From positions 45,014,001 to 45,078,000 of the forward strand of contig OZ076409.1 in the NCBI GenBank assembly GCA_964187785.1: a DNA stretch of 64,000 nt, in the 5' to 3' direction. Below the pieces are notes generated by a model. It was given only the letters and a program-made list of their open reading frames with translations. It had not been told where the DNA came from and ran no database searches. Made by a program: the position numbers and the translations under genes. Source of the stretch: Amphiscolops sp. MND2022. Its lineage: Eukaryota. Below, piece after piece: positions 35,179 to 62,134 of this stretch; position 1 is the stretch's first letter, and each line of letters opens with the position of its first letter.

Positions 35179-37781
35179 AGTTTTATTGAAAACCGCAGTT
35201 TTATTGATACATCACATCCCTTACTCAAGACTCAATCAACTCGAAGACACCTCTGTTGATAATGTTGTTTTGACTGTTGGGCTGGGCGAAATTAAGTTAG
35301 TTGTGTCTATTGCATATGTCAGACCCGATGACTTCGAAGGATTGAGAAGTACAATAAAAGTTATACAGAATTGCAAAACGTATGTTGACAAAAATTGCCT
35401 GAATGGTGCTCTTTTCTTTGGTGATCTCAATGCAAGACATACCTATTGGGGAAATAAATCGTGTACCTTGTTAGGAGAGGAACTAGTTCAAATAGCTGAC
35501 CACTTCAGCATTCTCAATGATGGTGAGCCTACATTTCTGGCAGCTACAGTGTTATCGATCTCTGCATTTGTTATGGGCCTCTGTTTGATAGATGTAAACA
35601 CTCTCTGTCTACGGATGAATTTGCTGAGCTGTTCACCGGTGCTCCACAGAGGGGTCATGTTCCTGTTATTATGAGATTGGAGCGTAGTAGCACCACTGAT
35701 AAGACCAAGAAATTATGGATTGAAAAAGCTGATTGGGTGGGTTGGTTTTCTTTCGTTGAGGGCCGAATAGATGATCTCATGGTTGTTGGGGACGACCCTG
35801 TTTTTCGTAGGAACGAGTTCAAGAATCTGCTGCACGAAGCTTCCCTTAGTCATATACCCCTCAAATGTGTTTCTGATCATAGTAAACCGTTTTGGAACTC
35901 TGACTTGACAGACGCAAGCAATGAACTCCGATTTTTACGCAAAAAGTTCAAGTACAAATCAAATTTTGAAAATGGACAAAAGCTAAAGGCAGCGAAGGAA
36001 CGTTTCAAAATTCTACTCAACAAAAGTGTAACTGAATGGATGGAAAACTACCTGTCATCGCTTGGGCATGAGAGAGGAAGAGAATTTTGGACTTCTTACA
36101 AGGCCTTACTCAACACTAAACATGAAGAAGTGGGTCTAATACGCAGTAAGGAAGAGAGACTTTTATATGCTCCAGAGCAAATAAGCAAAGAATTTGAAAC
36201 CACTATTTTCAGAGGAGAACATCTGAAAAAGCAAATTTTCAACGATGCAACACAACTACAAGTAGAAGCCAAAATAAATCAAACACATGATGGTCCTGAA
36301 CATGATATTGAAGTATTTCATGATGAAATTACTTTCGATGAATTGAAGAATGCAATTTTGAAATCAAGTAACACTAAATCTTTTGATATTGATGGTCTTC
36401 ATTTGACAATGATAAACAATTTGGGAACTAAAGCACTCCTTTTTCTGCTGAATATTTTCAATGCTTGCTGGGAGTATCATGTGTGGCCATGGACGGACTC
36501 ACGAGTCGCATTCATACGCAAGCCAAACAGAGATATGATGAATGCTCTTCATATCGACCACTTTCAATCTCCAGTCATATCGGCAAAACGTTGGAAAAAA
36601 TACTTGCAACCAGAATCAAATCGTATCTCGATGTGAATGGACTGCTTGGTGACGAGCAGGAGGGTTTCAGATCGAACAGACACCACTCGATCGCTCTCCA
36701 GACTACATCCCATGCTGGAAATTGCCAAACGTTCACGTTTACCGACGGCTCTGCTTAACATTGACCTCGAAAAGGCTTTCGATAGCGTGTGAGTGGACGG
36801 CCTTCTCTTTAAACTGTTGGAACACAATCTTTCTGGCAAAATGTATCAGATAATAAAATCGTTCTTAAAAACCAGATTCGCTTCAATTGAATTGAACGGA
36901 TACAAATCGCCGAAGTTTCAGATTGACATTGGCATTCCACAGGGAAGTGTGTTGTCACCATTACTCTTCATCATCTTCCTAAACGACTTCCTCAGTGATC
37001 AAACTCAAAAATTCAAGTTTGCTGACGATAGTTCTCTCATTGCGACTGGCAAGGATCCGTCAGAATTATCTGCCATCCTTCGAAAAACTTGTTCTGACAT
37101 CGAGAAGTGGTGTGCAGATTGGAGGATGTTAGTGAACGGAGGAAAAACTGAATTAATCCTTTTCAATTGCAAAGAGAATGACTTCGAACTCCCGTGCCTC
37201 AATGGTGATATATGTCAAGTTAAAAAAACAACAAAGTCTCTCGGAGTAATTATCGATAGCAAGCTCAACTACCGGGATCATTCTACTAAAACTATCGAGA
37301 GAGCAAAGCGAAATTGGAATATAATCAAGTCGTTATGCAATAGAAAATGGAGCCTTGCAGTTCCAACGCTAGTTCTGTTGTAAAAAATCACAATCTTACC
37401 CTCACTTTTTTATGCAGCACCAATTTGGCTTGAGAAAAACCTCAAATACGTCACAGCAGTACAGAACAATTTCATAAGGACAGTTTTTAGACACAGATTT
37501 TCGCCGAATATCGACTCGTGTCAAGTTCTGCTAGGAATGCCGCCTCTTGATCTTCTGAGTACAGCCATCAGCGTCAAATTTCTCCTGAAGCTCAAACTAG
37601 AAGACGATTTACTACATTGGACCCATGATGCATCTTCATCTTTTCCGGACAGTGTTGCTAACCTCCTGGAGTGTCATGTTACCAGATTCGGAAAGTTTTT
37701 GGGAATTCATAATTGTACGAGATACAAACAGCAAGATGTCAACCTTTTCATTAACCATCTTTGGAACCTCAAGTGGAAAAA

Positions 37782-38122
37782 GGGTGGCTGTAAATAGGTC
37801 GAATTTTTCTGGTCGAAAGGACTGAGGTCGAACCTTTTGATCGAATTACAGGGATCGAATGGAATGGGGACGAATTTTAAAGTATTTGTTGTATGGCTCG
37901 GTCGCTTCGGTCCCTTCGCCAAGTAGCAACATTGAGGCATGGCCATATGGCACGTCGCTCCGCTTCGCTTCGCTCCTGCATTCAGGACACTAGGGGTATG
38001 TGAACATATCTGACTACGTTTCGATACGAGTTGTTTCGATCCCATTCAAAAATTTGGTAATGTCGACCTGAGGACTAACTCTGATTTTCGATCCCGTTCC
38101 TTCGACCTATTTCCGCCCACTC
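37782..38122 (+). mobile_element. Mutator-type MITE copy 2
   Basis: Same family as 34723-35066; 9 bp TSD GTGGAAAAA/GTGTAAAAA. Confidence 0.88.
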
Positions 38123-38295
38123 GTGTAAAAATAATGACAACAGGTCATTTCTGAAATGTTACACCAGAACCAGGGTTTTCAATCTTATATACAATCTCAA
38201 TTTCAATCTCAATCTTTTTCTCTCCAATCTTAATCTCAATCTTTTTATCTGAAAAATTCAATATCAATCTCAATCTCAGTTTTTACTTCATCAAT

Positions 38296-38605
38296 TGATA
38301 TACCAGATATATATGTTGCTTGATTTTATATCATTCCCCCAACCCCCCGTATGTCTAGACTTTATAACAAATGCACTTCATCAATGTAACTGATTAATAT
38401 TCTAGACGTAAACTTGATGTACCCACTTTATATTCTGTACGATGCATTTTGATTTAGAACACAACTATAATTCATTCTTCACCAACCAGTTGTCTTCCTT
38501 TAAGACCTAATATCTGCAGCTCTATTAGTGTCTCTTAAAGTACTAAGATCAAATGAACATTCCATCTCTGTCCCACTGATCTATAGTAAGAACTCAAGTA
38601 CTTTA
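38296..38605 (+). repeat. 5' LTR of element B (310 bp)
   Basis: Differs from the 3' LTR by one substitution and one 2 bp indel, as read by eye. Confidence 0.96.
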
Positions 38606-38607
38606 AC

Positions 38608-38620
38608 TGGTGCGACCATC
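38608..38620 (+). promoter_or_regulatory. Candidate tRNA primer-binding site
   Basis: TGGTGCGACC lies 2 nt after the LTR end. The cognate tRNA is not identified. Confidence 0.65.
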
Positions 38621-38685
38621 TCGTTTCTTTCCTTTTCTACAACCAATTTTGTAATCCAAATTTTCTTCTCTTTCACAAAATCTTC

Positions 38686-38888
38686 TGTACTAATTACCCA
38701 ACGTGATTCGACCTCGTAGTCGGTACAAACGCAATTCTTCTTCTGTACTAATCACATATTGTGGTTCGACCTAGTAGTCGGTACATCAAAACTTTCTGTA
38801 CTAATCACCTTTTGTGATTCAGTTACACACTGGTACACTATCTTCTCTTGTACTAATCACCTTTTGTGATTCAGCTCCTGCTGGTACA
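38686..38888 (+). ncRNA. Four tandem structured RNA units (three-way junctions) in the 5' leader
   Basis: Units 38686-727, 38744-785, 38797-837, 38849-888: TGTAC-T-AATCAC-loop-GTGATT-stem3-GTACA, with compensatory and G-U changes. Confidence 0.8.
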
Positions 38889-39647
38889 ACCATTTCTTTT
38901 CTTATATTCATTTTTCATACTTGAACTCTCTAATATACCTTCCTTTTCGTTTTTGTCTCGCTCCTTTTTCTAACCCACATTTCTTCGCCACCACTTCCTT
39001 TCTCACAATTCTCCATATTATTTCATGCCTTCTTTGAATGACTCCGTTTGTATTTGTTTAATCCTCCTTTACATTTTTGGTCTTTGCGCAATTGTTTTGC
39101 TCCTTGTTGACAAACTCATCCTGCCTTTTATTCCCCACGCCTTTGAACAATATAGAACATCTTCACTTTAATAATTATATATGTTTCTCACTGAAAATCT
39201 TGCCACTATTATCCTTTTCGTTTCCTATATCTTTGCCATGATGGTTTTTTTGATGCTTCTCATTGAAAAAATCGTTGAATCTCTTTTCAACTAACTTCCC
39301 TTTCTTTTCCATTTTCCCTTTTTTCTTTCCCTATCACCTCCTTGATTTTTCCGCATATTTTATTAACACCTTCCCTATTCTTTCGTACCATTCTCCTTTT
39401 CCTCACTTTGTATGCACCTCCTCTTCCTTCACCCCACTCACCTCCTTGCCCTTTTCCAACTTCTTTTTCTTTCTCTTTTCCTCATAACTACATCCATATA
39501 TTTTTATCCCTCTTTCCTCTCCTTTTACACTTATCTTCGCCTCAAAATCCATCGGTACTTTCACCCTCTTCCTACTGAACCATCTATTCACCCTGACGTA
39601 ATTATGGATTGGATTTGGTTACATTTCAATCCTCATAAACATTCCTA

Positions 39648-42600
39648 ATGACTGATTCACATCTCCTTCTTCCACTTCTTTTCGCCCCAACCTCCTCTCA
39701 ACGTATTACCCGTGATATTTCACACACTCTTCTCCAATTCCTCAACAATCTTATCTATAATTCAACCACTCCTCTTTCTTTTGAAACCTACCCGGAAGAT
39801 ATTTACACTACCCCACTAATTCGTGATCATCATGATTCTTATTTATATTATATTGCCACCCATTCACTTATTCCAAATTCTGACGAACCTCCATTTTCTA
39901 TTCCGTTCACTTCTCCCACAACTCACTGTGATACTTTTCAAAAAAATATCCATCCCAATAATATTCAAATTCCAATCGCCCATGTATTTACAACTTTTCT
40001 AAACAACCTCCAAGAAAAAAATAACCTTCTACCTAAACATGTTTTTAACCCTTCCTCCATTCAAGAACTTCTTCAAAAGAAATCTCTTTTTGACCTTCCT
40101 AATATTGAACAATTTCGCTCTATTGAAAATAATCCTCACCATTGGCTTACCACAGATATACTTCAAATTCATCACTTTCAATATCAATTTTTCCAAAATA
40201 TTACCCTCAATAAAAATACCAAAGAACAAATTTAAATATACTCCCTTTTTCTTCGCAAATTTTTCCGACATAATTACCAACTAATTTGGCATTCAAAATT
40301 TCAAACTGCCTGTCAAAACTTTCCGCAACAATTCACTACTGATGAACTTCTACCTTTCCTCGATACTCCTGATAACCAACATCCCCACTATTATAACCTT
40401 CTTGATTTTCCTTCCTCTCATTTTGTATATCTTACCTATGATTCTAATAGTATTGATAAAAGCCTCAATCTTCCTCCTCCTCTTCGCCCTTATTTCCATC
40501 AACCCAATATTCCTCCTTCGAATGAGACACTTTCTACAGCTTCTATTCAAACTCTCTCTTCCTCGTCACATCCCGTGACAAATCCTACTTCATCTTTAAC
40601 TCGACATATCTCTCCCCCTACTTCTCAAGACACATCTTTAAACCACAACAATCCTCCTTCTACTTCTCAAATCACAACAATTCATAACAATCCTCCTCTC
40701 TCTCATTCACCCAAGCAATATACAACTCCTTCTAACACCCCACCTGCTGTTATTAGTAATCCCGTTCAACATTCAACTTTCCAAATTCCTTCATTAAACC
40801 CAATTCCACTTTCTTTAAATACCACTATGCCTGCTCAAATTTTTCTCAAAATCCTCCATCTTCTTCTACTCAAAACCATTCTACTCTTCAAACAACTTCT
40901 TCCACAACCCAATCTACATCCTATAACCCTTATATTTCTCTTTATCCTACCTTTCAAAATTTCCCCACTAACTCTTTTCAACCCCCTCCAAATCCCCCTA
41001 ATTCGCTCCCTCCCACTTCCACATTATCATTCAATCCTTCTTCCTCTTATCCTTCAATTCCTTTTTCAACCACTCCTTCTGTTCCTTTTGCTGCACTTTC
41101 CGACCCTATTAAACTTTTCGATGGCTTAGATCATACCTATCCTCCAGAAAAATTCTTAGCCCACCTCAGCGCACGTGTTACATTTCAACTTGGACCTCAA
41201 CCTGTCGATATTCACTCATATTTAACTTGGCATTCTCGCCGAATGTCTCTTCTGTATTGTTCCCTCACAGGAACTGCTTCCAATTGGTATGACCGTCTCC
41301 CACAAGTTTATAAAGATGATTGGTCATCCTTTCTTCAAATTTTCAAGAAACAATTCTATTCCCAAAAACACGCATATCATGCTCAAATTGAAGCCCTTTC
41401 CCTTCTTAAAAAGGATAATGAAAATGTCCGTCACTTCGCTCTTAAAGTCGAAACCCTTGTAAAACAAGGTTGGTACAATGAATATCCTTCAACGATTAAT
41501 CTTAAATGTAATGAAATTTTTACCCGTGGTCTCCCTAAAAAATTAAAAGATTTCGCTAACAAACGTCAAGTTAAACATATTTCAAGTTCTTTAGAACCAT
41601 CAATCCCATTTCATTCTCTCGTTAATATGGTTGATTCCGAAGACATTACTCTTGAAAAAATTAAAACTCAAGAACTTTCCCTTGAAATTAACAATTTGTC
41701 TAATACTTTCCAACAGAATACAACAATTCAAGATTCTCCTCCAGAACCTCCACAAGTTCAAGTAATGGATCCTAATAATAAATCAAAACCCCAATTCAAA
41801 AAATATTGTTCATTCTGCCATAAAAATAATCACTCTGTTTCAACTTGTTTCCGCCGTCTCAATATGCTTAAAGAATCAAAACCACAATCTAGATCTCCGA
41901 CTCCCACATTTTATCAACATTTTAAAAATCCTTCCAATAAACCTCATTATTCTCGCCACCGTAGTCGAAGTTATAGTAACCCTCCTCGCAAATCTTCTCG
42001 CGACACTCGTTATCAATCCCGTTCCTATTCACGTTCACATTCACGTCCCCGGTATAATACTAAAACCTACTCCCGAACATATTCGCCTTATCACAATCGT
42101 GATAGATCTCGATATGATAAACATTATAACCATACTCAATATAAACCATATTCTTCTACACGCTCATATTATAGTTCTAATTCCTCCCGTAGTCCATCTA
42201 GATATTACCCTCGTTCTCGTGAACGTTCCTCAAATTTTAACACCTCTACCTTCAACAGATATAATTCTCCTTATCGTCCTCCTTCTAAACCACGTAATGA
42301 TCGCTATCGTAGTAGGTCTCATTCAAACTCGCACAATCATCCTCAAACCCAATACAAACCCTGTATAAATCTTACACATCCATCTACACCACCTCCTCAA
42401 ACCAACTCCCAAACAGAATCTATTTTTGAAATCAATATGTATCATCCTAATATCTCCTCGCCCCAATCTTCTTCCACTTCCTCTGAACATGCTAATGCTA
42501 TTACACCTTCCACTTGGTTCGTTAATCTATATATTTTCAAACCTAGTGAAGATACCTCTATTCCTTCTAAATTAGAACTCTTATTTCTTCTTGACAGTGG

Positions 42601-45600
42601 TGCATCCATTTGTGTTTTAAATTTACCCACTTTTACCATTTTAGCTGAACACTTCTTAAAATGTTCAACACATTCTCCACATCAAAACGAATACAAAACG
42701 TTAACTGTTGCCAATAAATCCGAAGTACCCATTCTTCATAATATAATACTTACACTCCATACTTCTCTTAATGGAAATACTCGTACCCTTGTTATTCCTT
42801 TTGCAGTCGCAAATATTAAGTTCAACATTCTTGGAACTCCCTTCTTCGAAAAATATGTTAAAACTCTTAATATTGAAAACATGTTCCTCACATTTAACAC
42901 TCCACACGAATCTCGTATTAACACTCTCCCTTTTACAGCCCATAAGGAAAAAGATTATCCATATTTTTCATATATATACACTATTAATGTTAAAAACAAA
43001 ATTTATATTAAACCCAATGCATCGCAAATTATTCATTTCCCTATTCAACCGACACTCCCGCTCACATTTAAAACCTCCGACAATGAAGTTATATTTCCTT
43101 CTACACCTCATCCATTTTTTAATACACGCTTCAATTCCACCTTTAATTTTCTTCAAGTCTATCACAATGTTAAAACTGAACCTTCAACCTGTTCTGTCAT
43201 CATTCAAAATATTACACTTCACTCCGCTACCCTTACTCCTGGATATATTGGATATATTGAAGTTCCTGCCACAAACATTCAACCCTCTCACTATAAAGTA
43301 AATGATGTACATTCTTTAATACATTCCGTATTCCATTCTTATTATCCTGATCTTTCAGAACCAAAACCTCCCCGTAGACGTTCTTCTCTCCGCAATCCTC
43401 AAATTGAAATAAACAATTTGCAGCCTTCCCAAATTTTAACACGACCCCTTCCACCTTTACCATATTCACCAGATACCCAACAATTTCTTAACAAATTTAA
43501 ATTTCAATATTCAGATGTTTCTGATGAAGAATATTTACAACTGTGTTCCATTCTTGTCAAATACCGCACATGCTATGCAACACATAAAAATGATGTTGGC
43601 CAAATAGCTACCCCTTTTCGAATTAGCCTTAAACCCAATGCTAAACTTCAAACCCAACGTCCTACCAAAGTTCCTATTCATTATAGGGAAAAATTGAAAA
43701 AACTTCTCGATGAATTAGAAAAACACAATATCATTCGCCAAATTGGTTCCACCCCCTCCGATAAATCCATTTATGGTACCACGTTTTTAAATCCTCTCAT
43801 CATCATCCCCAAAGGAGACACTATTAAAGTTGTTTTAGACGCACGTCATCTTAACTCTAATACCGATCAATCTTTTGAATCTTGGCCTATTGAACCTTTA
43901 GCCCCCCAACTTGCACGCGCTAACAAAAAATTTAAATCCGCTATCGATCTTATGTATGCTTATGCTCACGCTCCATTAGATGAAGAAACTATTACTTTAA
44001 CCAGTTTCTCCTCCGGTGACAAACTTTACGCTTTTATTCCTGGATTTTATGGTCTTAAAGGCCTACCTAATTTTTTTACCAAACAGATGTATCCATTTTT
44101 CCAAAAACTTATTGACCACGGCTTTGCACTAGTCTATATTGATGACATTCTTCTTCTCGCCCATACCAAACCTCATATGTTAAATTTAATAGAACAACTT
44201 CACCAAATTTGTCAAACAAATAATCTTAAAATTGCCCCTGAAAAATCTTTCTATATTTTTCTTACTGTTAAATTTCTTGGACATGAAATTGGCAATAACA
44301 CCATTAAACCTATTTCTTCCAAAATTGATGCTATTCACCAAATAAAAACACCTACTTCTAAAACTGAATTAATGCGCTTCATCGGATCAATGAATTTTTA
44401 CTCTAAATTCATCAATAAACTTCATATTTCTTTGAAACCTTTTTACACTCTTCTCCATGATGACATTTCATTTGAATGGACTCCTGAGTTAGACAAACTC
44501 TTTAATCAAATTAAACTCTCTCTTTCCAAAGATGCAGAACTTGCTATTCCCAATACTACCCATCCATTCTACATAACAGTAGACGCCTCTTTAATAGGTT
44601 TAGGCGCAGTTTTATTTCAACCGAACTCCAAAAACAAAATGCAAATAATTTCTTATATTTCTCGTATTTTAACAACCCAAGAACAAAAACTCTCTACTTA
44701 TGATAGAGAACTTTGTGCTATTACCTTTGCCCTTTCCCAATATGAAGTTATTATTATTGGCTCCAAATTTCCTATAACTGTCTTTACAGATCATAACCCT
44801 ATTCTTTTCCTCTTCACACGCAAAGGCAACCTAACTCCTAGACAATACAAAACTCAAATGCTATTAACCAAATTTTCAAACTTACAAATCATTCATACCG
44901 CTGGTACAAACCTTACTGTAGCTGATATGCTCAGTAGAGATTTTTCAACTATTAATGCTAAAACTTGCCAACTCCACCATAAAACTCTTCCTCCTCATAT
45001 TGATTTCCTACAACTCAAACAAAATAATATTTTGAAACCTATTCATTATCTCGTAAAACATGAAGATGTACTCCCTACACAAAAAAATGATTCACACTTA
45101 ATATTAGCCGGTTATGGTGATGATCAATTTACACTCCGTATCCAAGATAAAGGCAATGTTGTTAAATATACTCCTCGTGACTCCTTTTCTTTTCAATCTG
45201 TTTCCTCATTTTTAAATAAATACAAAAAACCTGTCAAAAACAAAGTTAAAACTCTCCTCCACGAAAACCCTCTTTTAAACGAAACTGATTTATATGACAC
45301 AGACGATCCTGTTCTTAAACAAATTCCTCAACAATATTCACAAACATCTCATGAACTTCACACCCTTTTTACAGAAGTACAACATCACTATTTTAACGAC
45401 ATTAATTTGTCACAAGATATCCTAACCAACTTTATAAACTCCCCTCCTTTTATTAATCATAATCTTCACAGTAATGCTATAACACCAACTTCCCCAAAAA
45501 CCATAAATACTCAATCTTTGCTATTTTTTGACCCTTCCTTCTTTGCCCACCGTAAGGCATTTGACAATTTTTTCCTTCTTTCTGACACCTTCTTAACATT

Positions 45601-47562
45601 ACCCATCCTACTTCAAGCCCAAAAGGATGATCCTGTTCTTTCTACAGTATATACATGGTTAAAACGAACACAGAGACCTCACTCTTTGACCCCAAATATT
45701 AAAGCAATTTCTTTTTTAAATACATATTACAAACAATTCCAACATCTATATCTAGACCCAAACTCTCACCTCATCCAATATTATACCCCCAATTCTCGAA
45801 TTTTTGAAGAAATTTTTATTAAAACTCAACCCTCTATTAACCAGACACGTATATGTTTACCATTTAAACTTTTTTATGCCGCATTTACTAAAACACATTC
45901 TCATTGCCACTCCGGTGAAAAACTCTCTATTAAAACTTTTAACCAATTTTATTTTATTCCTCATCTACCTTTATGGTTCTCAATTTTCATCCATGACTGT
46001 ATTGACTGCCAGACAAACAAGCATTTTCCAATTAAACCCCAAAACATTTCTCCTCCCCTTCCCTTTTATGAAAACGCTACTCACTTTAATTACCGGATTT
46101 CTATGGACACTAAAGGTCCTATTTCCCCATCTTCTCAAAACAACTCCTATATTTTTGTTATTATTGACGCATTTAGTCATTTCGTCGTTACTAACCCAGC
46201 TCCTAACATTAATTCCAAATATGCAATTCAAACTCTTCTCCATCATTGGATCACAAAGTTTGGTCCCCCTCAGTATCTTGTCACAGATCGAGGTACTGAA
46301 TATATTAATCAAGACATGGCTCATCTTTGTTCTCTCTTTCATATTAACCATTCACCTCGAACTCCCTATTCACCATGGACCAATGGTTTGGTCGAAGTCC
46401 AAAATAGAAACCTTGGAACTCATCTCCGGATATTTTTACAAAATCCTCCTACTAACTGGTCATTTCAAACTCAAATGTACGCATATGCTCATAATACAAC
46501 ACCTCTTTCTCAGCTTAAACTTTCTCCATATCAGATCGTTTTTCATACCCATCCTCGCATACCTCTCACCTTTTCCCTTAATCTACCTCGAGATACTCAA
46601 AAAAATTGTATTGCAACTTATTGCGAATCTCTTTCTCCTCATTCACATTATAGTACTCAAGATCTTAACCCATTTTTTCATTCTCTTCTTGACAAACCCA
46701 TCTCCTCGTGGCTTTTAGCAGCTGAAACCGCAATGTTAGAAATATATTCAACTGTTCACCGCCATATAAACCATAAACTCAATTCCCAAAGTTCTACATT
46801 TGAAACAACCCATTTGAAACAACTACCTCTTAATACTTTCGTTATACATACAAACTTTAAACCAGTTAATTTTTCAAAAAGCTCAAACCTCTCCGAATTG
46901 GCCCATATAAAGTACTTAAACATCTTTCTGAAGTAACTTACGAGCTCCTTTCTCAAGATGGCTCTACATTTCAAACTCACCGAAATCATATTCTGCCATA
47001 TTACCCTAAAGAACCTATAATTTTTCCATACATTAAACATTATCATTCTACCCCTTCTCTTATTAACAACCCTGATACTGACTCTTACCAAGATACCTTT
47101 TCTCAATTCTCCTCTTTAGATTTACAACATAATTCTAATTCTTCTCAGACTCCTCCTTCCTCCAAATCCAAACACTTTAACAGCTTCCCCCCTTCCATTC
47201 CTAACTACCAAAACCTTTCACATTATTCTTCCTTACAAGATCATTTAGACCATATTCCTTCCTCTACTACCAAACCTTTACAATCTTCCTCCTCTCAAGA
47301 TAATCTTGATAATACAATAGACTCTCACGATTCAGATTTTGAAATGCTTCCAAATCCTATTTATTATTCAAACTCCTCACCTAACTCTTTCCCTCAGTTC
47401 TTTCCTCGTGTTGCTGATTCTCCTGATACTTCTTCATCTTCTCTACTTGAATCCCCCAACGAACCAATTTACCAACGAGCTCCTCATTCCCCATACAATT
47501 TACGTTCACTCCCTCCTCGACATTATAATTCATCCAAACCAAACATTAGCTTTCCTCCTTGA
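39648..47562 (+). pseudogene. gag-pol: gag-pol of element B (1897 aa intact core 41243..46936; disrupted N-terminus; frameshift at ~46878)
   Basis: Capsid SLTGTASNWY, knuckle CSFCHKNNHSVSTC, RS-rich tract, LLDSGAS, YIDD, VDAS/FTDH, H-H-C-C and D,D35E integrase. RIGPYKV tail continues in frame to 47562. Confidence 0.93.
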
Positions 47563-47808
47563 TTAATATTCATTTTTTATTTGGATTTTCTCTCTCCTAT
47601 TGTCCTCAGTCTAAACTTTTTTAAGTTCGACATGTGACAATCTAATTAACTATTTTCTTCTAGTTCCATCTCCCCATTCTATCTCAGAAACACAAACTGA
47701 ACGGTTGCTCTCATCAAGACTGTTGCTTTCATCAAGACTTGTTGTCATACAGAAACCATTAACATACAAAATTTAATCTTCAATTCTTTTCCTTTAATTC
47801 ATTCATCA

Positions 47809-49236
47809 TTGTCTCTACTTCCAAAACTAATAACTTTTCATCCCTTCCTATTTAATAATAATCTTAAAAATTTGTTTTTTCCTTTTGTTTCCATCCTGGA
47901 TCTCACTGTATTCTTGTCCGACTCCTCCTCTCGAACCTCTTCTACCGTTTCAACTGACATTATACCTTCTTCACAAACTTCTGTATCAACTCAACAACCT
48001 CCTTTAAATCCTATCCCAATTACCCCTTCTTTAGATACCACCCCTGTTAATACTCCAACCCATACTCCTCTTCAAACCTCCGTACCTCAACAAACTCAAA
48101 CTTCTCTAACTCTTCCACTCTCTGACACAGAATTTCCTTTTGACATAACCCCTAATCATTCTCCACCTTCCTCTTCCTTTCATATTCCTGATCCAAGTGA
48201 CATTAACCCTACTCTTCTTCGAAATATTAATAACCCCACTCTTCCTCGATTAAAACTTATCCCTACTTCTATAAAATCTTTTCGCCGTCGCTCCCAATTA
48301 GATAATTCTCTTTCTATCCCTCCACCTTGTTCTCACACCTCTACTAAGTCTTCTTTACCTCCTCCTAAACCTCTTAAAATCCCCGTACTTGAATCTATTG
48401 ATTCACTCCAGAAAAAATCAGATTTGAGTGAGATCGATTCAACTACTTCCTCTCTTCTTTACCCACGTCTTCCACTTTCCAATTCTGCTTCTAAATATAC
48501 AACTTCTTCCTTAGATAATCTTCTTGACACTTCCTCTGAATCTACTATTCGCCCTCCCCTTCGTCATAGATATAATCTCCGTAATAACCGTCGTCCTTCT
48601 CCTTCCCTTGCAAGCACTAACTCTTCTCTTTTACGCCACCACGCTCAATCTCTTTCTTCAGACTCCCTTTCAAACGCAGAAAACACTCCTACTTCTGGAA
48701 TTGACACTGTCTTTTCTCAACGTTCCTCTATTTCTTCTTATAATCATACTGGTCATCTTTTCTCTCGCCCAACTTCTCAAAATTCCAGTCTTCTTTCATC
48801 TGACAATCACTTACTTAACATTGATCTTACCACTGATCAATATTCTACTCCTCCTACACCTAATCGTGTCGATTATCCTCTAATTGTAAATCATACACTT
48901 GTTAATAGCCCTCGCCAAGATCCTCGTTTTCTTTATCTTGCCACTCATAAACTTAATTCAAATCTCCATATTTCCGACACACGTCGTCGTAAAGAATTTC
49001 TCCGTCTCGAAGAACCGAGTCTAGAACTTAAATTTGAAATCAACGTCAAATTCCATAACTTAAGTCCTCATCCCATTCCTTCCCATACAACAGTAAATTT
49101 TAAATCTCTTCCCCATCCATTTATTGCCACCAATCTTAGTCTTTTTGTTAGTGATCATCCACCATTTCGTCTTTTACACGGTTCAATTACTTTTCTTAAT
49201 ACCCTCACCTTTTTAAAATACACTGCCCAATTTTAA
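47809..49236 (+). CDS. Accessory ORF X (about 475 codons, S/P/T-rich; start codon uncertain)
   Basis: Long stop-free frame between pol and env that ends 2 nt before the env ATG. It has no ATG at its start and contains RYNLR. Confidence 0.55.
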   Translation: MSLLPKLITFHPFLFNNNLKNLFFPFVSILDLTVFLSDSSSRTSSTVSTDIIPSSQTSVSTQQPPLNPIPITPSLDTTPVNTPTHTPLQTSVPQQTQTSLTLPLSDTEFPFDITPNHSPPSSSFHIPDPSDINPTLLRNINNPTLPRLKLIPTSIKSFRRRSQLDNSLSIPPPCSHTSTKSSLPPPKPLKIPVLESIDSLQKKSDLSEIDSTTSSLLYPRLPLSNSASKYTTSSLDNLLDTSSESTIRPPLRHRYNLRNNRRPSPSLASTNSSLLRHHAQSLSSDSLSNAENTPTSGIDTVFSQRSSISSYNHTGHLFSRPTSQNSSLLSSDNHLLNIDLTTDQYSTPPTPNRVDYPLIVNHTLVNSPRQDPRFLYLATHKLNSNLHISDTRRRKEFLRLEEPSLELKFEINVKFHNLSPHPIPSHTTVNFKSLPHPFIATNLSLFVSDHPPFRLLHGSITFLNTLTFLKYTAQF

Positions 49237-49238
49237 AA

Positions 49239-51932
49239 ATGTTCTTCCTTTTTTTCAACTCACTCTATTATTTTCTCCCTTCCCTTCTCTTGGTACTTTC
49301 TCAAAATTCTCCATCTTCCGATCATGTAGATCCCAATGATCCCCATATTTCAGACCTTTTAGTCTCTCACTATGATTGCTCTAAACAACATAATTTAAGA
49401 CAGTTTAGTCTTACCCGAGTACAACCATGCGTTCAAGCCCCCTCTGCTTTTGAAACAACACGCGCTATTGTCAATGTTTTCGTTCGTGCTAAAGCTAGAC
49501 GCCTCCGCGCTTGGACGTGTGAAGCATACGTAAAACGAGAAAAATTTGTCTGTGCCCAATCTGATTACAAATATCGTCGTCATGACCGTACGGACTATCA
49601 TCAGAATACCATGGAACGTCCTCGTACTCTTGATCCAACCGAATGTAAACACGCTATTCGTCATTTAAACGGAACTCATAATCCTCAACTCGATGCTTTT
49701 AATTATTCCAATTCTTTTACCTTTTTCAATGATATTCGAAAACAACGCCTTTTAGAAACAAAACAACCTCCTTTTCGTATTACTAAACTCAATACTTATC
49801 ATTATGGTGCTTTTGCTTGGATCACCAATTCACAATTAGTATTAAACTCAACTCTGGAAGAAAAAGCTGTTTGCTGGGACCGCTATGAATATATTATTGA
49901 AAAAGACAGTTGGTCTCTCATTGTAAAAGAAATTGAAATCACTTATGATGACAAAGAAAATAAATTAATATATCATGGACATACTTTACCTTGCCTCCAC
50001 GACGATGGTTTTTGTAAACCAACAATATTAACACCTTTCACCATTGTTTTGTTTCCTGAAGACCTTTGTTTAATTTTCTCTATTCATTCCTTTATTGGTC
50101 GAATGTCTAAACTCAATAACCGCTATTGGCTTGAAACTGAACATTTTTTCAATAATCATTCCTCTACTGAGTCAACCAATTCTCCTTACCACGATACCAA
50201 ATCTCAAACACGTCTTTCTCGCTTTGAAATTTTTCCTGAAAACAAAATGTTTTGCAATAAACCTACCCCCTTACATCTTACGCAATATCCTGACTTGTTT
50301 GTAACGTACACCGAAGGTTTTAATATGCAAACTGGTAAACATAATCCTCTTCAACTTCCTCAAGACGAACAATACAACCAACTAACCACCCAGTTAATAT
50401 CTGGAAAATTAATTCATACTAAAGATAAACTTCTTTTCCCTGCCCTAAATTCTTCGAACAACTTCGCCACCATCGATTATGAAGCTCATATTAACACTAA
50501 ACTTGATTACTCAATAAATCATGTTTTTAAAAGCATGTCTGTTGCTGAACTTAACACTCTTCACACTATATGTGAAGTCGAACGTACTCAACTTTTAACC
50601 ATACTCGCTTTGTCTGTTAAAAATCCACAACTTGGTGGTTTCCTCTTAACTCAAAATCGTAGCAACTTTTTATATGTTGAAGGCTCTACTGCCTGGTTAT
50701 ATGACTGTCCTCATCACCTTTCACCTCTCTATATTGCTGACAAATGTTATGACAAGATTCCTGTCAATTATCTTGACACTGTCATGTATGTAGATCCTAT
50801 TACACGTCAAACTTTTGAATATGCTAACCAAATACCTTGTGAAAATAATCCTCAAAATGTTATTTCTCTTGACCCAGACACCGATCAATATTACGTTCTA
50901 ACTCCTCAACCTATTAAAAAAGATCCCCCTCTTCTTTTTGAACCAACTCAAATTCAAACCGCTATTAGCCCGAATACTTTCACCGCTCAAGACGCTGGCA
51001 TTTATTCACAAAAAGAATTAAAACATTTTTGGAATCGAGTTTTATTCACTAAACACTCTGATAATACTCTCCAGCTTCTCGGAAAAGCTATCAGTTATGA
51101 ATTCATGAATCAACAATCTGACAATTCCTTTCCTAGTAATCCTTATCGATCACTCCGAATTGGTCTTCATGACTACATGTTAAACCTGACCCCATTCTTC
51201 TCTCCTGACTGGTTTACTAATGCTTTCATCAAACTTTTTGGCTATCCATGCTATATTTTAACTCAATGTGGAATATACTTCTCTACTGCTCTTTTTCTAC
51301 AATTCGCTTTCAATGCACTTTTTAGTATTTACCGTTCATTCACTGTTCGAAATCTCCTTAAAAAACAAATTTCCGTAATAACTGCCTTAGGATTTGGTTT
51401 CTTTGGCACTATTACCAAAACCATGATGACTGCTATGATTAAATCAACTCATTCATCATCAGATTCTGATGATTCTGATTCTCCTCATTCCCCTTTAGCA
51501 AACAATAATACCACGTCTTCCAGTTTTAAACCTCGTCCTTCTAAATATCATACAAATATTAAAACAAAACTTCTTAGTTTAAAAAATAAAAATCCCATGA
51601 AAAGAAGTTCACCAAACTCTTCACCTATTAAAACCCCCTCTTCCTCGATATTTCATGCTACTTCCATTAATCCTACACACCCCCCTAACACCGAAGACTA
51701 TTCGCCTCCACCTCCAAATTATAATTCTCACCTTTCATCTCATAATAATCTTTCTTTACAACACTCCCAATTACCTTCATTATCTTCTCCCCCTATTTTC
51801 ATAATTCTCCTCTTCCTGATGACACTAATTGTGATAACTCTTCTACTGATTCCCCCATTCATACTCTCTGGCAATCTACTAAAATTTACCCTCCTACTCC
51901 ACCACCAATTAAAACTAATGACATTCCGTTAA
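49239..51932 (+). CDS. env: Envelope glycoprotein, chuvirus-G/herpes gB-like (class III fusogen); tail probably frameshifted near 51800
   Basis: Signal peptide; HYDCSK...FSLTRVQPC; CEVERTQLLTILAL...NP; CYDKIPV...YVDPITR...IPC cysteine pattern; several N-x-S/T sequons; C-terminal TM; S/P-rich tail. Confidence 0.85.
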   Translation: MFFLFFNSLYYFLPSLLLVLSQNSPSSDHVDPNDPHISDLLVSHYDCSKQHNLRQFSLTRVQPCVQAPSAFETTRAIVNVFVRAKARRLRAWTCEAYVKREKFVCAQSDYKYRRHDRTDYHQNTMERPRTLDPTECKHAIRHLNGTHNPQLDAFNYSNSFTFFNDIRKQRLLETKQPPFRITKLNTYHYGAFAWITNSQLVLNSTLEEKAVCWDRYEYIIEKDSWSLIVKEIEITYDDKENKLIYHGHTLPCLHDDGFCKPTILTPFTIVLFPEDLCLIFSIHSFIGRMSKLNNRYWLETEHFFNNHSSTESTNSPYHDTKSQTRLSRFEIFPENKMFCNKPTPLHLTQYPDLFVTYTEGFNMQTGKHNPLQLPQDEQYNQLTTQLISGKLIHTKDKLLFPALNSSNNFATIDYEAHINTKLDYSINHVFKSMSVAELNTLHTICEVERTQLLTILALSVKNPQLGGFLLTQNRSNFLYVEGSTAWLYDCPHHLSPLYIADKCYDKIPVNYLDTVMYVDPITRQTFEYANQIPCENNPQNVISLDPDTDQYYVLTPQPIKKDPPLLFEPTQIQTAISPNTFTAQDAGIYSQKELKHFWNRVLFTKHSDNTLQLLGKAISYEFMNQQSDNSFPSNPYRSLRIGLHDYMLNLTPFFSPDWFTNAFIKLFGYPCYILTQCGIYFSTALFLQFAFNALFSIYRSFTVRNLLKKQISVITALGFGFFGTITKTMMTAMIKSTHSSSDSDDSDSPHSPLANNNTTSSSFKPRPSKYHTNIKTKLLSLKNKNPMKRSSPNSSPIKTPSSSIFHATSINPTHPPNTEDYSPPPPNYNSHLSSHNNLSLQHSQLPSLSSPPIFIILLFLMTLIVITLLLIPPFILSGNLLKFTLLLHHQLKLMTFR

Positions 51933-52335
51933 CTTCTGTCAATACTAATTTTGACCCACCTGACAGTCCTGTCAAAGTTTATTCTTCTTGTCGCTTCCCT
52001 CCAGAATAATATATTTACCTTTAATTTTCTTAATTCTCACTCTGAATCTTAAATACCCTAACCCAATTATATTTCCATACTAATATTGTATCTTTTCTCC
52101 ATATAATTAAACCTACTTCCTTTTTCATTTGTCGTCATTCTTGCTTTCACTCTAGTTACTCCTACCCACTTTCTCCAAACAATTTTCTTGAACTTTTCTA
52201 TACATCTTACTTTCATCTAAATTCATACAATCTTTTCTAAATAGAAAACACACATTCGTATAACCTTATCCAAACGCACATTCGCATAATTTTCACCCTT
52301 TCAACTATTCATTTCTACCTTCTTTCCACACAAAA

Positions 52336-53817
52336 ATGGCCACTATCAATCCTGAGGAAGAACTTCTTTCCAGTATTGCATCTTTGTCACCCCCTCTTTC
52401 TCTTAAATCTGGTACTCCTGATCTTCCCCTTGCCAATGATCTCCTTCCATCTAATTTTAACAATACTCCCGAACCTACTGTACCTACTACAAATAATTCC
52501 ACCATTTCTCAATCTAATAAACCATCTTCGAATAATCTTAAATCTCGTCATTCTCCTACTCCCCCTCCAAATAATCTTCATTTTACTATTGATAATCATC
52601 CTATTCCTCCTAAAAAGAAATATAATATCCTCGAAGATCCTGTTTTTATTGATTCTGGTATTTTACCTCCAACTCTTCAACCATTAAAAACTCCTTCTCA
52701 ATCAAATACAATGACTGACGAAGTCCTCCGTACTCATCCAAATTTTAAAGCTAACCTCCCTTCATTTTTCATGACCCCTACTTCTTATAAATTTCGTTTT
52801 CCTCAAGATCGTAGTTTTGACCACTATGTTGCTTATGCTTCCAAAAATCTACCACAACTCGCCTATTGGCAAAACAATCGTGTTCGTTTCTTCCAATTCC
52901 AATTCAACCTTCTTAAACCAACCCAACATGATTTAAATACCAATCCCAATGATATAACCACAACTCCCTCTGTTAAAAAACTTCACCACCAAACCTATCA
53001 ACTTTTTCTTCAACACAAACACCCTCAAAACTTCATCTTCCAAAATCATAAATTTACTTCTCCATTTTCATACCATTCTCACTATTCTTTAAACCACCTC
53101 TTCACTATTGGAACAATTCGTAAATATGATCCTGTAAAATAATATTTTGTTCTCTCTTCCTATCATGATCCTACTCGGCCGTTATTTGTCCCTCAAGAAG
53201 CACTTAATGTCATTGATGACTTTTTACTTCCTACACACATTCCCAACGCTGTTTCAAATTTCTTCCCAAAAATGAATAAATTAGTAGAAACTCCTCTCGA
53301 TGATCATTCTCGTTCACTCTACACAGCACTAGTTCACAAACACTATTCTCTGGCACAACTCAATTTTATTATCGCAAAACTTTCCTCTTTTATTCTCAAA
53401 AAACAATACAAATATTTCTCATTAAACATCTCAGATGAAATTCTCCAAACTCTTCCTAAACATACTCCTCCTAATACTACGTCTGAACCTTCTCACACTA
53501 CAATAATCCCTCCTTCATCTAATTCATATGTTCTCCAGACTACCAATCCTAATGTGTGCATAAATTCTTTCTCTTGTCCAACAGACAAATTTGTCTCAGA
53601 AATACTTACTCTTCTCCGTCCACATGTTGAAATCGCCCCTAATACTGATCCTTTTGTTATTTTAAACCACATCTTTGACACTTTCCGTAATCTTCAATCT
53701 CTACTTCAACTACACTCAACTGATATCCAAAATTTAACGATCTCTACAATTCATGTCAACGATTTTCTTAAAAAACTTGTTCTACTTGAAACTCCTCCTC
53801 AATTCACTTCCTCTTAA
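52336..53817 (+). pseudogene. Accessory ORF Y (~493 codons, one internal TAA at 53140)
   Basis: ORFs 52336..53142 and 53272..53817 are in the same frame, separated by a single stop; AAAAATGG start context. Confidence 0.65.
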
Positions 53818-54483
53818 ACCTCTCTCTTACTGGTAAACACTTTCTTTCTTTTAATTCCTTTTCACAAAAAATTTTTTTTTCAATCGACTGGATAACAAAT
53901 TTCCATAGATAACAAATTTCCATCTTATCTTTTTCGACCTCTTATTCAATTAACATAGATATTACATCTTTCACTCCTTATTAACATATATCATCTTCCT
54001 TCTCACTTTTGACACTCTTTCCTATTGTTTCCTCTACTCCTTAATAAATTAACTTGACTTTTTCACTTGTTCTTTCAATAAATGTTGACACTATCCTCAT
54101 AATATCTTCTAACATTATTAACTTTTGACAATCTTTTTCCAATTTTCTCTTTCATTTGCTTTTCCAACTCTCTTCAGATCACTCCTCTTTTGAATATCAA
54201 ATTCTAAATCTTCTACTGAATACCCACATTTCCGTTTTTGTCACGCTTATACTATCAGGTATAATATGTTTCAAATAACTTTCCAACTTTTCAAACACAA
54301 ATTCAACAAGTATTTTACACCTCTTTCTTTTTTCGTATTTTCAATTCTATCATATATTCCTCCTTTAGAATCAATAAATTCACCACAACACTTTCTCTAT
54401 ATTAAAACTTTCTCTATATTAAATTACTCTACATACTATAAAAATAATCATAATCCAACATTATCATTTATTCTGTTTCAGTA

Positions 54484-55389
54484 ATGACATCTTATCCTCC
54501 TTCGACATTGGCATATCCTCTTCTCACTCAACTTCTGGACTCTTCGCTGCCTTTCCCTGTTTCTTCCACTTCTTCAACATTCACTCTTCCAACTGTTGCC
54601 GCTACCTCTTCATCATCCCCCATTGTTTCATCATCTGCATCATCCACTGTGGCATCTGTGATATCATCCAATGTTGCATCTATAACATCTGCTGTTTCAC
54701 TATCACCCATTCCTTCTTTTGTCAATACTACAGCTTCAAATACATCTGCCTCAACTACACTTCCAGTGCTTTCTTCTTCTATTTCGTCTCCAGTTTCATC
54801 GATCGAGTCTTCTTTCTTCCTCCATCCCAAAGATGCTGTTGCCACTTCTCCACACTTCCAACAATATTCAGCCGTCCGCCAATTGACCCGTGATCTTCAA
54901 CAGAAAAAACCCAAGCATCCCAGACGTCCACACTTGCCTTCCGATATAATTCATCAACCTGTTCGTCGACTGGTCCACACAGTGGTCTATAAACAAAAGT
55001 TGAACCAGTATATAGATGCACTCAAATTGTATGAAAAACACATTGATGAACTTATTGAACAAACTACTTTTGAATTAGATAAAATTAATAATAAACCCCC
55101 CCTTTCAAAATTGCGAAAATTTAAAACGCCTCAGTCCATGCAATTATCCCCTCTATCTATTCAAATCCCTTCTAATAATTGCTATAACCATTATAATTGT
55201 TTCTCCTCTAATACTCTCCATTGTTCACATGTTCCTATCAACTATGCTATTCATTCACATTTTCCTCCCCCTCCACCTTCCCCGGCCTTAATCCCCATTC
55301 GCATTGAAGCCATAACCCCCACTTTTCAACCTCCCTCCCCTCTAAACGATTTAGACCAGTTGGTAACTTCGTTGAACGACGTTGATTAA
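54484..55389 (+). CDS. Accessory ORF Z (301 aa; S/T-rich N-terminus, central coiled-coil-like helix, Pro-rich C-terminus)
   Basis: Intact ATG..TAA, directly preceded by a splice-acceptor-like TTCTGTTTCAG. Confidence 0.62.
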   Translation: MTSYPPSTLAYPLLTQLLDSSLPFPVSSTSSTFTLPTVAATSSSSPIVSSSASSTVASVISSNVASITSAVSLSPIPSFVNTTASNTSASTTLPVLSSSISSPVSSIESSFFLHPKDAVATSPHFQQYSAVRQLTRDLQQKKPKHPRRPHLPSDIIHQPVRRLVHTVVYKQKLNQYIDALKLYEKHIDELIEQTTFELDKINNKPPLSKLRKFKTPQSMQLSPLSIQIPSNNCYNHYNCFSSNTLHCSHVPINYAIHSHFPPPPPSPALIPIRIEAITPTFQPPSPLNDLDQLVTSLNDVD

Positions 55390-56700
55390 AGAATCATTGA
55401 TTAAATATTTTTTGAAATTTTATCATCCATATTTTGACCATATTCACTTTGTCTGTTTTCAAACACATCTTTTAACCCCCCCATGTTTTTCTTGACCCTT
55501 ATAACCTCTACTATTGTACTATACCTTCCATTTTATCTAAAATTTTCAAAATTTCCTCACTAAAATTTCCCATTTTTTTCCCAAAATCTGCTTGTAACTT
55601 CGGTTCTAACAAATCAATTTTTTCAAATTCTATCTTAGCATGATGCTTTTGACCTACTTACTCTTAAATGCTGGAGCTATCCATTTTCTTCCCTTTTCTT
55701 CACCATTAATAAACTTTTTGAACCATAACTCCAAATTTTTTCTCTTCCTCCCAAAACATTTTTTGACTTTACTCCTCTTTAACTTCAATTCAACAAAATA
55801 TCTCCTTTTTAATTTTACTCCTACTCATCATATGTTCAAACCTACTTACCTCGGTATCTAACTCTTCTTCACTTGCTTTTTAACGAACTAAATTTGCGTG
55901 ATCAAAACATTTCTTCCATTTTCTCAATTGAAAAAATACCTGCTACGTGATATAAATTTGAACAAATATTGACTCATATGGCTTTGTTTTCGCTCAAAAT
56001 TTGCTTTCTTACGCCGCCTCTTTGCTTTGAAATTCTGACGTCTCATTTTAGTTGATTAAAAAGGCCCATAAGACAAACGCTTAGTTAAAAAACAACTGAG
56101 AATCTTCGGCTTCTTGCATGAATTTCCTAGTCAATTAGGCTGTCAAATTTTGCCATCTCTCACTTTTCATGTTCTCCTCCTTGTCAATCAAACTTTTACC
56201 GCCTCGGAAGATACTAACTCATTCGTCCTGTACAAAATTTTCATGAAATCTGAAACAATTTTGCTGAATTCGTAACCAACATGAACATGTCGAATTTCAA
56301 ATATTGAACTGAAAATAAACAAAAATAAAATTTTTCTTCTTCCTCTTCTCCCTTTCCTATTCTCTCATGTATTCCTGACCTATTAACTAAAGTTAATACA
56401 TCACTCCCTTGAAGATACTTTTATCTACACTAAACATCAAAAAATGCCCGTAACTCACGAAAGGAAAGATATGAAGACAACCCTATCATTAAAAATTTTT
56501 TTATTATTTTTCACAAAATATATGAAGACAACTTTTCAAATGAAAACCCCTATTGCAAGATTATTAAAATTCCTCCTTTTTCTTTCTCTAAACATATTGA
56601 ACTAAACTCCAACCTTTTTAATGGAACCCCAATTTCCAAGATACCTTTTAACAATAACCCTAAAAAAATTTCTTTTCTCTTTTTTCAAAACCCGGTCGGA

Positions 56701-57008
56701 TGATATACCAGATATATATGTTGCTTGATTTTATATCATTCCCCCAACCCCCCGTATGTCTAGACTTTATAACAAATGCACTTCATCAATGTAACTGATT
56801 AATATTCTAGACGTAAACTTGATGTACCCACTTTATATTCTGTACGATGCATTTCGATTTAGAACACAACTATAATTCATTCTTCACCAACCAGTTGTCT
56901 TCCTTTAAGACCTAATATCTGCAGCTCTATTAGTGTCTTAAAGTACTAAGATCAAATGAACATTCCATCTCTGTCCCACTGATCTATAGTAAGAACTCAA
57001 GTACTTTA
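56701..57008 (+). repeat. 3' LTR of element B (308 bp)
   Basis: Copy of 38296-38605, followed by TSD CAAT. Confidence 0.96.
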
Positions 57009-57661
57009 CAATCTTTCAATATTTTTCGAGTTATTTTAACAAAATGCCAAAAGACAATCTTTTTATTTGAAAATTGTAACAGTGAATCTGTTTTAGACTT
57101 CTATGATTACTCTAAAATGAAAACGAAGCCTGGCCCTGGTTGAAGTTGGTATGCATATAAACAATTGATTTTTGTTGCCTTTGTTTGTCAGCTTCGATAA
57201 CGCGTATAGATGCCATCAGAAAACTGAACTTGCCCCACCAAGCTTTCAATTTTTTTTCAATCTTATAAAGTATTGTCAATCTCAATCTCAAACTTGTTTT
57301 CGAGGACCTTGTCAATCTCAAGTTCAATCTCAATCTTTGTTTTTCAATCTCAATCTTGAAAATTTGCTGAGATTGAAAACACTGACCAGAACCCCACCAA
57401 CTTGTAACGCTATATCGTCCCTTTTCAACCTTCAAAGGTATGAAGCCATCAAAATTTGTGAAATGCGGTATCGGCAATTCTTTCTCTTTAGCCGATTACG
57501 CTTGGAAAAATTGGCAGACGGAATCTCCGATGTGTCATTGTGGCAAAAGTGAAGAGACTACAGAACATTTCTTTCTGGCATGTGGACTATACCAAGACAT
57601 CAGACCTGAAGACATTGACTCACTGAATCTCCTTGACCCTGATGATTGCAATACCTTTGTC

Positions 57662-58011
57662 GGGTGGCTGTAAATAGGTCGAATTTTTCTGGTCGAAAGG
57701 ACAGAGGTCGAACCTTTTGATCGAATTGCAGGGATCGAAAGGAATGCGGTCGAATTTTATCGTATTTGTTGTATGGCTCGGTCGCTTCGCTCCCTTTGCC
57801 AAGTAGCAACATTGAGGCATGACCATATGGCACGTCGCTCCGCTTCGCTTCGCTCCTGCATTCAGGGCACTAGGGGTATGTAAACATATCTGACTACGTT
57901 ATAAAAAATTCGATCCGAGTTGTTTCGATCCCATTCAAAAAATTTGGTATGTCGACCTGAGGACTAACTCTGATTTTCGATCCCGTTCCTTCGACCTACT
58001 TCCGCCCACCC
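57662..58011 (+). mobile_element. Mutator-type MITE copy 3
   Basis: Same family; 9 bp TSD ACCTTTGTC/ACCATTGTC. Confidence 0.88.
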
Positions 58012-62110: not shown

Positions 62111-62134
62111 TAGTGGTGGTGTGTATGCCTTGAG

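Follow-up and report, generated by a model that had tools for sequence, protein, structure and literature searches.

A 64,000-nt stretch of contig OZ076409.1 (assembly GCA_964187785.1), hereafter called the window, contains an 18.7-kb Ty3/Gypsy element that carries an envelope gene (env) and spans positions 38296-57008. As originally predicted, the element runs on one strand from a long terminal repeat (LTR) through a primer-binding site (PBS), leader, gag/pol, ORF X, env, ORF Y and ORF Z to a second LTR (Table 1; ORF, open reading frame). None of the long frames is on the minus strand, where the longest frame within the element is 123 aa. The two LTRs are identical at 307 of 308 aligned bases and differ by a 2-nt indel (310 versus 308 nt), and CAAT is present at both flanks; a 4-bp target-site duplication was also found in eight of the nine sister copies that were fetched with both LTRs (the ninth reads N). 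The PBS begins 2 nt past the 5' LTR and pairs with the 3' end of tRNA-Leu(UAA), for which a pattern search located a gene array (anticodon TAA) in the same genome, on C11. The near-identical LTRs and the intact duplication had been taken to indicate a recent insertion; both features are present, but the claim is overstated, as the copy is already broken in five places, namely by stops in gag (40233-40235) and Y (53140-53142) and by frameshifts in gag (~40.8-41.1 kb), in the integrase (~46.9 kb) and at the 3' end of env. The window thus holds a damaged copy of a Ty3/Gypsy element with env, whose families carry three additional selected genes and, we consider it likely, express them in the manner of complex retroviruses. 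The layout, the selection, the tRNA-Leu primer site and the precise loss of an intron from integrated copies are directly supported.

An env search returned 58 relatives, among them three large clusters that are 49-54% identical to the window env, and each cluster corresponds to one family in this genome, for which at least 50, 50 and 63 near-identical copies of env, respectively, were counted. Family 1, that of the window copy, occupies at least 96 places. The order gag-pol, X, env, Y, Z was observed in two family-2, two family-3 and three family-4 copies (one family-4 copy being interrupted in Y), and the elements are 17.7-18.7 kb long (17.7-18.1 kb in families 2 and 3). The complex accessory set of the original prediction is therefore borne out, as the same layout recurs in four families ~50% apart. 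Its proposed check, that X, Y and Z should be open and under purifying selection in other copies, was carried out using pairwise counts on natural open frames, and the ratio of nonsynonymous to synonymous change (dN/dS) of 0.09-0.22 is not that of compositional frames. Specifically, between two family-1 subfamilies X scored 0.10 and 0.14, Y 0.10 and 0.09, and Z 0.21 and 0.22, with 0.09 for both pol and env; families 2 and 3 compared with each other gave 0.18 for X, 0.15 for Y, 0.13 for pol and 0.12 for env (whole-gene Fisher p < 1e-12 for all). For Z, families 2 and 3 yielded a pN of 0.26 against a saturated pS of 0.78, and the core of the protein (0.09) is more constrained than its serine-rich start (0.46). 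Thus, X, Y and Z are genes under purifying selection. Conservation between families is more restricted: X and Y are homologous in all four, aligning at ~36%, and Z is 61% identical between families 2 and 3 and only weakly similar to that of family 4 (17%, not significant by phmmer), but family-1 Z has no detectable homology to the Z of families 2-4 (hhalign 0.3%). The third accessory slot may consequently have been replaced.

The element is Ty3/Gypsy by its pol gene. Matches to Pfam families for gag, reverse transcriptase (RT), RNase H and integrase occur in Gypsy order, no BEL/Pao or Copia family is listed among the Pfam matches of the element, and the best PDB match to pol is Ty3 Gag-Pol (E 1.6e-47), ahead of caulimoviral and spumaviral chains. 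Retroviridae have an RT with a tether plus a second RNase H; in the element a single Gypsy-type RNase H match was found, and retroviral chains score far below Ty3. A polypurine tract is absent before the 3' LTR, where a pyrimidine run and a conserved CCCGGT stand instead; this feature alone does not define Ty3/Gypsy (Metaviridae), and the CCCGGT suggests an unusual plus-strand priming site. One of the ten sister copies fetched first encodes Gag-Pol as a single 2,640-aa frame, in which an orphan N-terminal domain is followed by a capsid-type gag, one CCHC-like knuckle, protease, RT (YIDD), RNase H and, after a bridge of ~330 aa, an integrase with a GPY/SH3 domain and a Ser/Pro-rich tail bearing YNLR. 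Because this frame takes in ORFs that had appeared to lie in the leader, the true leader is only ~1.04 kb long and 39648-41129 encodes the Gag N-terminus; the structured leader of the original prediction is accordingly correct as to structure (folding z = -4.26, with none of 100 shuffles as good) but not as to extent. Its hairpin repeats are likely a packaging signal. The leaders of families 2 and 3, which have a PBS identical to that of the window copy, carry a different, ~46-nt tandem triplet, and none is evident in family 4; no clear splice donor was found in the leaders. The Gag N-terminus is homologous in the three other families and starts with a conserved orphan domain of ~280 aa (window 39648-40500; 39-42% across the four families), for which no Pfam family scored above cut-off and which is possibly matrix-like. 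The entire N-terminal extension has a dN/dS of 0.31. In one sister copy (L027), ~2 kb of gag is duplicated internally in tandem.

ORF X has no methionine in any family. Where homology between the X sequences begins, all four families contain A-x-x-CTG-G, which is an optimal start context, and this sequence is found in 38 of 39 distinct copies (23/23, 6/6, 5/5 and 4/5 by family, for copies with the site in view; seven loci in which it is cut off or absent were dropped). The CTG is also kept at 96 of 96 family-1 places found in a search that left the codon free, although these copies are related and do not represent 96 events. CTG accounts for only 0.4-2.2% of the leucine codons in Gag-Pol, and the putative start is the sole CTG within X in families 1, 2 and 4. 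From this codon to the env ATG, family 1 contains no ATG in any frame (9-15 expected), and the reference copies of families 2-4 contain two or three (11-24 expected), all of which open upstream ORFs of 1-17 codons. The simplest reading is that X and env would share a bicistronic RNA, in which X starts at a weak CUG and env is reached by leaky scanning. Leaky scanning through AUG-free ORFs has been shown in rice tungro bacilliform virus (RTBV; PMC5902531, in the text available).

The X protein comprises a disordered half followed by a folded C-terminal domain of ~140 aa, whose predicted model has a pLDDT of 84. The folded domain contains a conserved Arg/Lys-rich helix, and the protein has no membrane segment. 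YNLR and an aligned YPxL occur in the disordered half in all four families, and PSAP is present at residue 9-10 in three of them; PSAP would correspond to a TSG101 site and YPxL to an ALIX site. A YxLR motif is likewise found at the end of the integrase tail in three of the four families (window 47300-47562), where it may provide a second nucleosome anchor. In the portions available of published work, the stretch of foamy-virus Gag that attaches to the nucleosome acidic patch has YNLR at its core (PMC6021111, PMC6042332, PMC12125541), and p12 of murine leukaemia virus combines a late domain with a chromatin tether. Fold searches of the PDB and BFVD with the X model gave nothing at E <= 0.001 (the best match was VIA, at Z 3.0), which does not by itself show a new fold. 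Neither X nor Z matched a Pfam family above cut-off; a TscT match to Z was dismissed (E 0.043, 14.7 bits versus a cut-off of 27). Divergent relatives of X (P0124, P0106) are 52-64% identical in the C-terminal domain.

The env product matches PF24664 (Monjiviricetes_fusion; E 8.4e-28, 97 bits, cut-off 27), a family that we take to be linked to chuvirus and gB fusogens, in part from the available text of PMC13524379. The frame encodes 897 aa in the window copy versus 923 aa in sister copies. Its ectodomain contains 16 conserved cysteines, the number in the other families being 15-16, and the Env tail carries PPxY in all four. A crude hydropathy scan placed an N-terminal segment above 1.6, consistent with a signal peptide, in three of four proteins. 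Searched against PDB sequences, env had no match at E <= 1.

The region between Y and Z provides evidence that the element RNA is spliced. One full-length sister copy with identical LTRs is missing precisely the interval that opens with a GT past the Y stop and closes with an AG ahead of the Z start. This spliced state was found at five places in family 1, all exact, and at least two independent loss events are required since these places fall into two subfamilies that are 86-88% apart. The corresponding family-2 junction matched at 15 places, and an exact 296-nt GT-AG intron is absent from all ten that were checked, so that in total 20 genomic places carry the junction and 15 of the 15 checked lack exactly the GT-AG intron. 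A G|GTAA donor lies 3-15 nt past the Y stop in all four families. Because integrated copies show exact intron loss, the element RNA must have been transcribed and spliced and still reverse-transcribed and integrated. The Z ATG lies two bases past the splice acceptor and overlaps a TAA (TAATG), which is in frame in the spliced family-1 RNA; in the other families Z starts ~70-90 nt past the acceptor. Stop-start sequences of the TAATG type are described as a reinitiation signal in the available text of PMC5902531.

Y is a single frame of ~500 aa in six of the ten sister copies fetched first. No Pfam or PDB sequence match was found for Y, its model had none in BFVD, and the ESM Atlas gave no usable match for either X or Y; a single weak IMG/VR match outside the conserved part of Y was dismissed, and sequence comparison rejected the idea that X, Y and the Gag N-terminus are paralogues. 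The Y model is poor (pLDDT 60, pTM 0.28), and only its best-predicted beta segment (residues 160-230) offers a hint of chromodomain likeness: nine of the 50 matches listed, the two highest-ranking ones among them, are chromo or chromoshadow domains, and the leading rows include Rhino, SUV39H1 and Oxpecker, but these domains score at background level (Z 3.8-4.7, root-mean-square deviation ~3-3.7, 56-60 residues). Two relatives of Y among ENA proteins (P0268, with 29 cluster members on long contigs, and P0150) have best matches in this genome that are only 30-33% and 44-50% identical, respectively; as both are thus absent from this genome, Y likely extends to another organism.

We propose the following scheme of expression. 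Full-length RNA would very probably be translated into one Gag-Pol polyprotein, gag and pol being read through without an intervening stop or frameshift. With good but lesser confidence, we expect that a subgenomic RNA would start past pol, on which a minority of ribosomes would initiate X at the CUG and the rest would scan ~1.3 kb to the env AUG. Such an RNA might arise by cis-splicing, by spliced-leader trans-splicing, which involves about 30% of genes in one acoel (PMC9911081), or from an internal promoter. Splicing would then probably join Z to the Y stop, and since it forms the TAATG stop-start in family 1, ribosomes could there reinitiate on Z, or Z could have a spliced RNA to itself. 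The functions assigned to the products are more tentative. At somewhat less than even chances, X may be a free-standing adaptor resembling p12 or p6, which would recruit the endosomal sorting complexes required for transport (ESCRT) through PSAP and YPxL, together with PPxY in the Env tail, and dock on nucleosomes through YNLR. It is doubtful, though conceivable from the model, that Y might be a nuclear transactivator or anti-silencer acting through a chromo-like barrel, comparable to Tas of foamy viruses, which have a tas/bet accessory layout. Env would take particles from the soma into germ or stem cells, and broken copies, such as the one in the window, would spread using proteins from other copies.

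The element strand has only 8.5% G and its frames are rich in Ser, Pro and Thr, so that X, Y and Z could be supposed to stand open merely by chance on a strand poor in G and rich in C. This explanation retains practically no weight, as their dN/dS lies far below 1, X and Y align across families, and their stop-to-stop lengths (511, 292 and 311 codons, respectively) exceed those of all 300 mononucleotide and all 300 Markov shuffles, none of the 600 per region reaching them. It is also quite improbable that X forms the final exon of a Gag/Pol fusion made by splicing or read-through, with its CTG kept as a DNA or RNA signal, for example an internal promoter such as Penv of the Oikopleura Tor element, for which internal env promoters are reported in the available text of PMC4402516. 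In the window copy, X shares its reading frame with the end of Pol and is open for 65 codons ahead of the CTG, the bases flanking the CTG are also well kept, and a pyrimidine-tract AG at 47662 is conserved in 17 of 17 family-1 copies; no copy with a base pair other than AG before this candidate acceptor was found, which is uninformative as to its use. However, three lineages, namely subfamily 1b, family 2 and family 3, have an in-frame stop 6-8 codons 5' of the CTG with no AG between, so that no canonical splice can supply the X frame from upstream. Moreover, selection acts on the half of X that directly follows the CTG (dN/dS 0.11), and only scanning explains why ATG is avoided in all frames.

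The remaining alternatives concern function. If the genes were expressed as proposed, X could instead be a nuclear export factor for the unspliced genome, like Rev or CERV. The genomic RNA retains usable splice sites, the situation that makes Cer1 need CERV (PMC10309623, in the portion available), and the Arg/Lys-rich helix and lack of a membrane segment would suit such a role. The late-domain-like motifs and likely co-translation with env nevertheless point to assembly, and spliced genomes are packaged and integrated, so that export is not strictly dependent on the Y-Z intron; we regard an exporter as rather unlikely and rank it below the adaptor. Still less probable is a wholly intracellular element with a dispensable env, in which Y and Z would counter silencing by PIWI-interacting RNAs or heterochromatin and Z would occupy a rapidly replaced slot. 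The chromo-like hint in Y and the turnover of Z between families agree with this proposal, but env is selected like pol (0.09-0.12) and, among the top-scoring copies of families 2-4, mostly has an open frame.

Besides the low-confidence Y model and the unlike Z of family 1, several observations weigh against an element expressed in the manner of complex retroviruses. The window copy cannot make Pol or full Y, and the family 2-4 copies were picked for good env matches. X is open in only one of five family-4 copies, family-1 X is without PSAP, and the short motifs arise in shuffled X sequences at rates of 7% for YxLR, 14-16% for YPxL and 3-5% for PSAP. No furin site was found in the four env proteins in which it was sought, and a C-terminal membrane anchor exceeded the threshold of the crude hydropathy scan in only one of them. 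The 15 junction matches did not include the Y-Z junction of family 3.

Compared with described systems, as far as the available text of the cited papers goes, the element is complex-retrovirus-like in layout and closest to the ancient errantiviruses of the HSV/gB type (HSV, herpes simplex virus; Chary and Hayashi, eLife 2026, PMC13524379). It shares with them a Ty3/Gypsy pol, a cysteine-rich fusion Env with a putative signal peptide, the order gag-pol-env and the presence of many near-identical copies, and a tRNA-Leu PBS occurs in that group; unlike them, it carries three additional genes, has 1.7 kb separating pol from env, is 18 kb long and encodes a 2,640-aa Gag-Pol. Further marks of that group are an Env with a five-domain class III (gB-like) fold and cysteine bridges, a C-terminal membrane anchor and a 'mini' domain in the bridge between RNase H and integrase. 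The word 'accessory' is absent from the text of that paper that was searched, Xenacoelomorpha lie outside the groups it surveyed, and five xenacoelomorph genus names gave no matches in its supplements. Cer1 of C. elegans (PMC10309623) is likewise Gypsy-type, has no gag/pol stop and makes a novel accessory protein, CERV, from a spliced RNA, but this is one accessory protein, of shown function, and no CUG-env arrangement is described in that portion; no common Pfam family was seen between Cer1 and the element, which were compared without direct sequence alignment. Foamy viruses and foamy-like fish endogenous retroviruses (PMC6431247) resemble it in having genes downstream of env, a size of ~17 kb and a YNLR nucleosome anchor, and differ in their Retroviridae pol, their env and the location of YNLR, which is in Gag rather than in X and the integrase tail. 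ORFs I-III of RTBV (PMC5902531) provide a parallel for a non-AUG first ORF, an AUG-free stretch to the downstream ORF and the tolerance of short upstream ORFs, in a plant pararetrovirus that uses an AUU start on its pregenome, whereas here a CUG lies ahead of env. The original statement that Gypsy elements have at most gag, pol and env was too strong, because Gypsy elements with extra ORFs, such as Cer1 with CERV, the bdelloid rotifer ORF3 elements, Burro and Ogre, are in print (PMC6431247, PMC5408684). These too are large or carry extra ORFs, but in Burro env and host-like domains are located within one polyprotein, and the rotifer ORF3s encode recognisable enzymes (PMC5408684), whereas X, Y and Z match no known family. 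Tor (PMC4402516) is also an LTR element of a marine invertebrate, with env expressed by splicing or from an internal promoter, but no accessory genes are described for it there. Odin elements (PMC9040795), which are without env and have dual RNase H, were not a match. Searches of the open literature turned up no account of these families, of an acoel element with env or of a gene that starts at CUG in front of env in a Gypsy element; Repbase and subscription journals lay outside the search, and a library entry may exist.

Accessory genes with multi-layered translation and splicing are a mark of complex retroviruses, and the same organisation in a Gypsy lineage, kept across families 50% apart, suggests that such complexity evolved more than once. 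The families extend env-bearing elements to a group outside the published survey and add three protein families without known relatives (the X C-terminal domain, Y and the Gag N-terminal domain), one of which is confidently modelled with no fold match. As ATG-based annotation would miss a CUG-started X, the interval between pol and env in other elements may hold overlooked genes of this kind. In a sequenced acoel, about half of the genome consists of LTR elements (PMC9911081, in the portion available). More speculatively, and in our judgement with the balance somewhat against it, acoels may host an independent lineage of infectious complex retroviruses outside Retroviridae, with a CUG-started budding and chromatin-tether protein translated alongside a class III fusogen, two nuclear regulators paired by splicing, families that take up much of the genome and possible spread between cells into stem and germ cells.

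Table 1. Features of the env-bearing Ty3/Gypsy element, in window coordinates
Feature	Position	Strand	Basis or remark
Left target-site duplication, CAAT	38292..38295	.	flank comparison
5' LTR, 310 nt, TG...TA	38296..38605	+	
PBS TGGTGCGACCA, 11 nt, complementary to 3' end of tRNA-Leu(UAA)	38608..38618	+	
Leader with four ~55-nt hairpin repeats (38676-38872)	38606..39647	+	folding versus shuffles
Gag-Pol	39648..47562	+	Pfam, motifs; interrupted here (one stop, two frameshifts)
ORF X, 446 aa, no ATG, likely CUG start	47896..49236	+	alignment, dN/dS, model
env	49239..51932	+	PF24664 match; 3' end frameshifted here
ORF Y, ~493 codons, one internal stop in window copy	52336..53817	+	
GT-AG intron, 649 nt, Y stop to Z start	53833..54481	+	intron-less copies
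ORF Z, 301 aa	54484..55389	+	dN/dS
CCCGGT motif at expected polypurine-tract position	56687..56700	+	kept in families 1-3
3' LTR, 308 nt	56701..57008	+	LTR alignment
Right target-site duplication, CAAT	57009..57012	.	flank comparison

Elsewhere in the window, an angel homologue on the minus strand (2615-4036) is closest, among named relatives, to one from the acoel Convolutriloba macropyga (55%, 476 bits), with no other animal above 281; on this single gene, the host is likely an acoel. An NF-YC-like histone-fold host gene lies nearby, also on the minus strand (1458-2114). A second long LTR element extends from 14120 to ~29800, with a repeat of ~1.17 kb that is 97.7% identical and whose ends are not fixed; its gag-pol (15024-20918) is followed by 65-nt and 32-nt tandem arrays and by three orphan frames (21803-22993 and 24921-26036 on the minus strand, 27637-28686 on the plus strand), which have no Pfam match and no likeness to X, Y, Z or env. 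LINE (long interspersed nuclear element) remnants occupy 35527-37797. A dispersed repeat flanks the env-bearing element in the same direction on both sides (37782-38120 and 57662-58009; 94-95%), with a third, inverted copy at 34720-35068, and a tandem array of 166-nt units (82+84) lies within a 1,226-nt duplication at 62133-64000.

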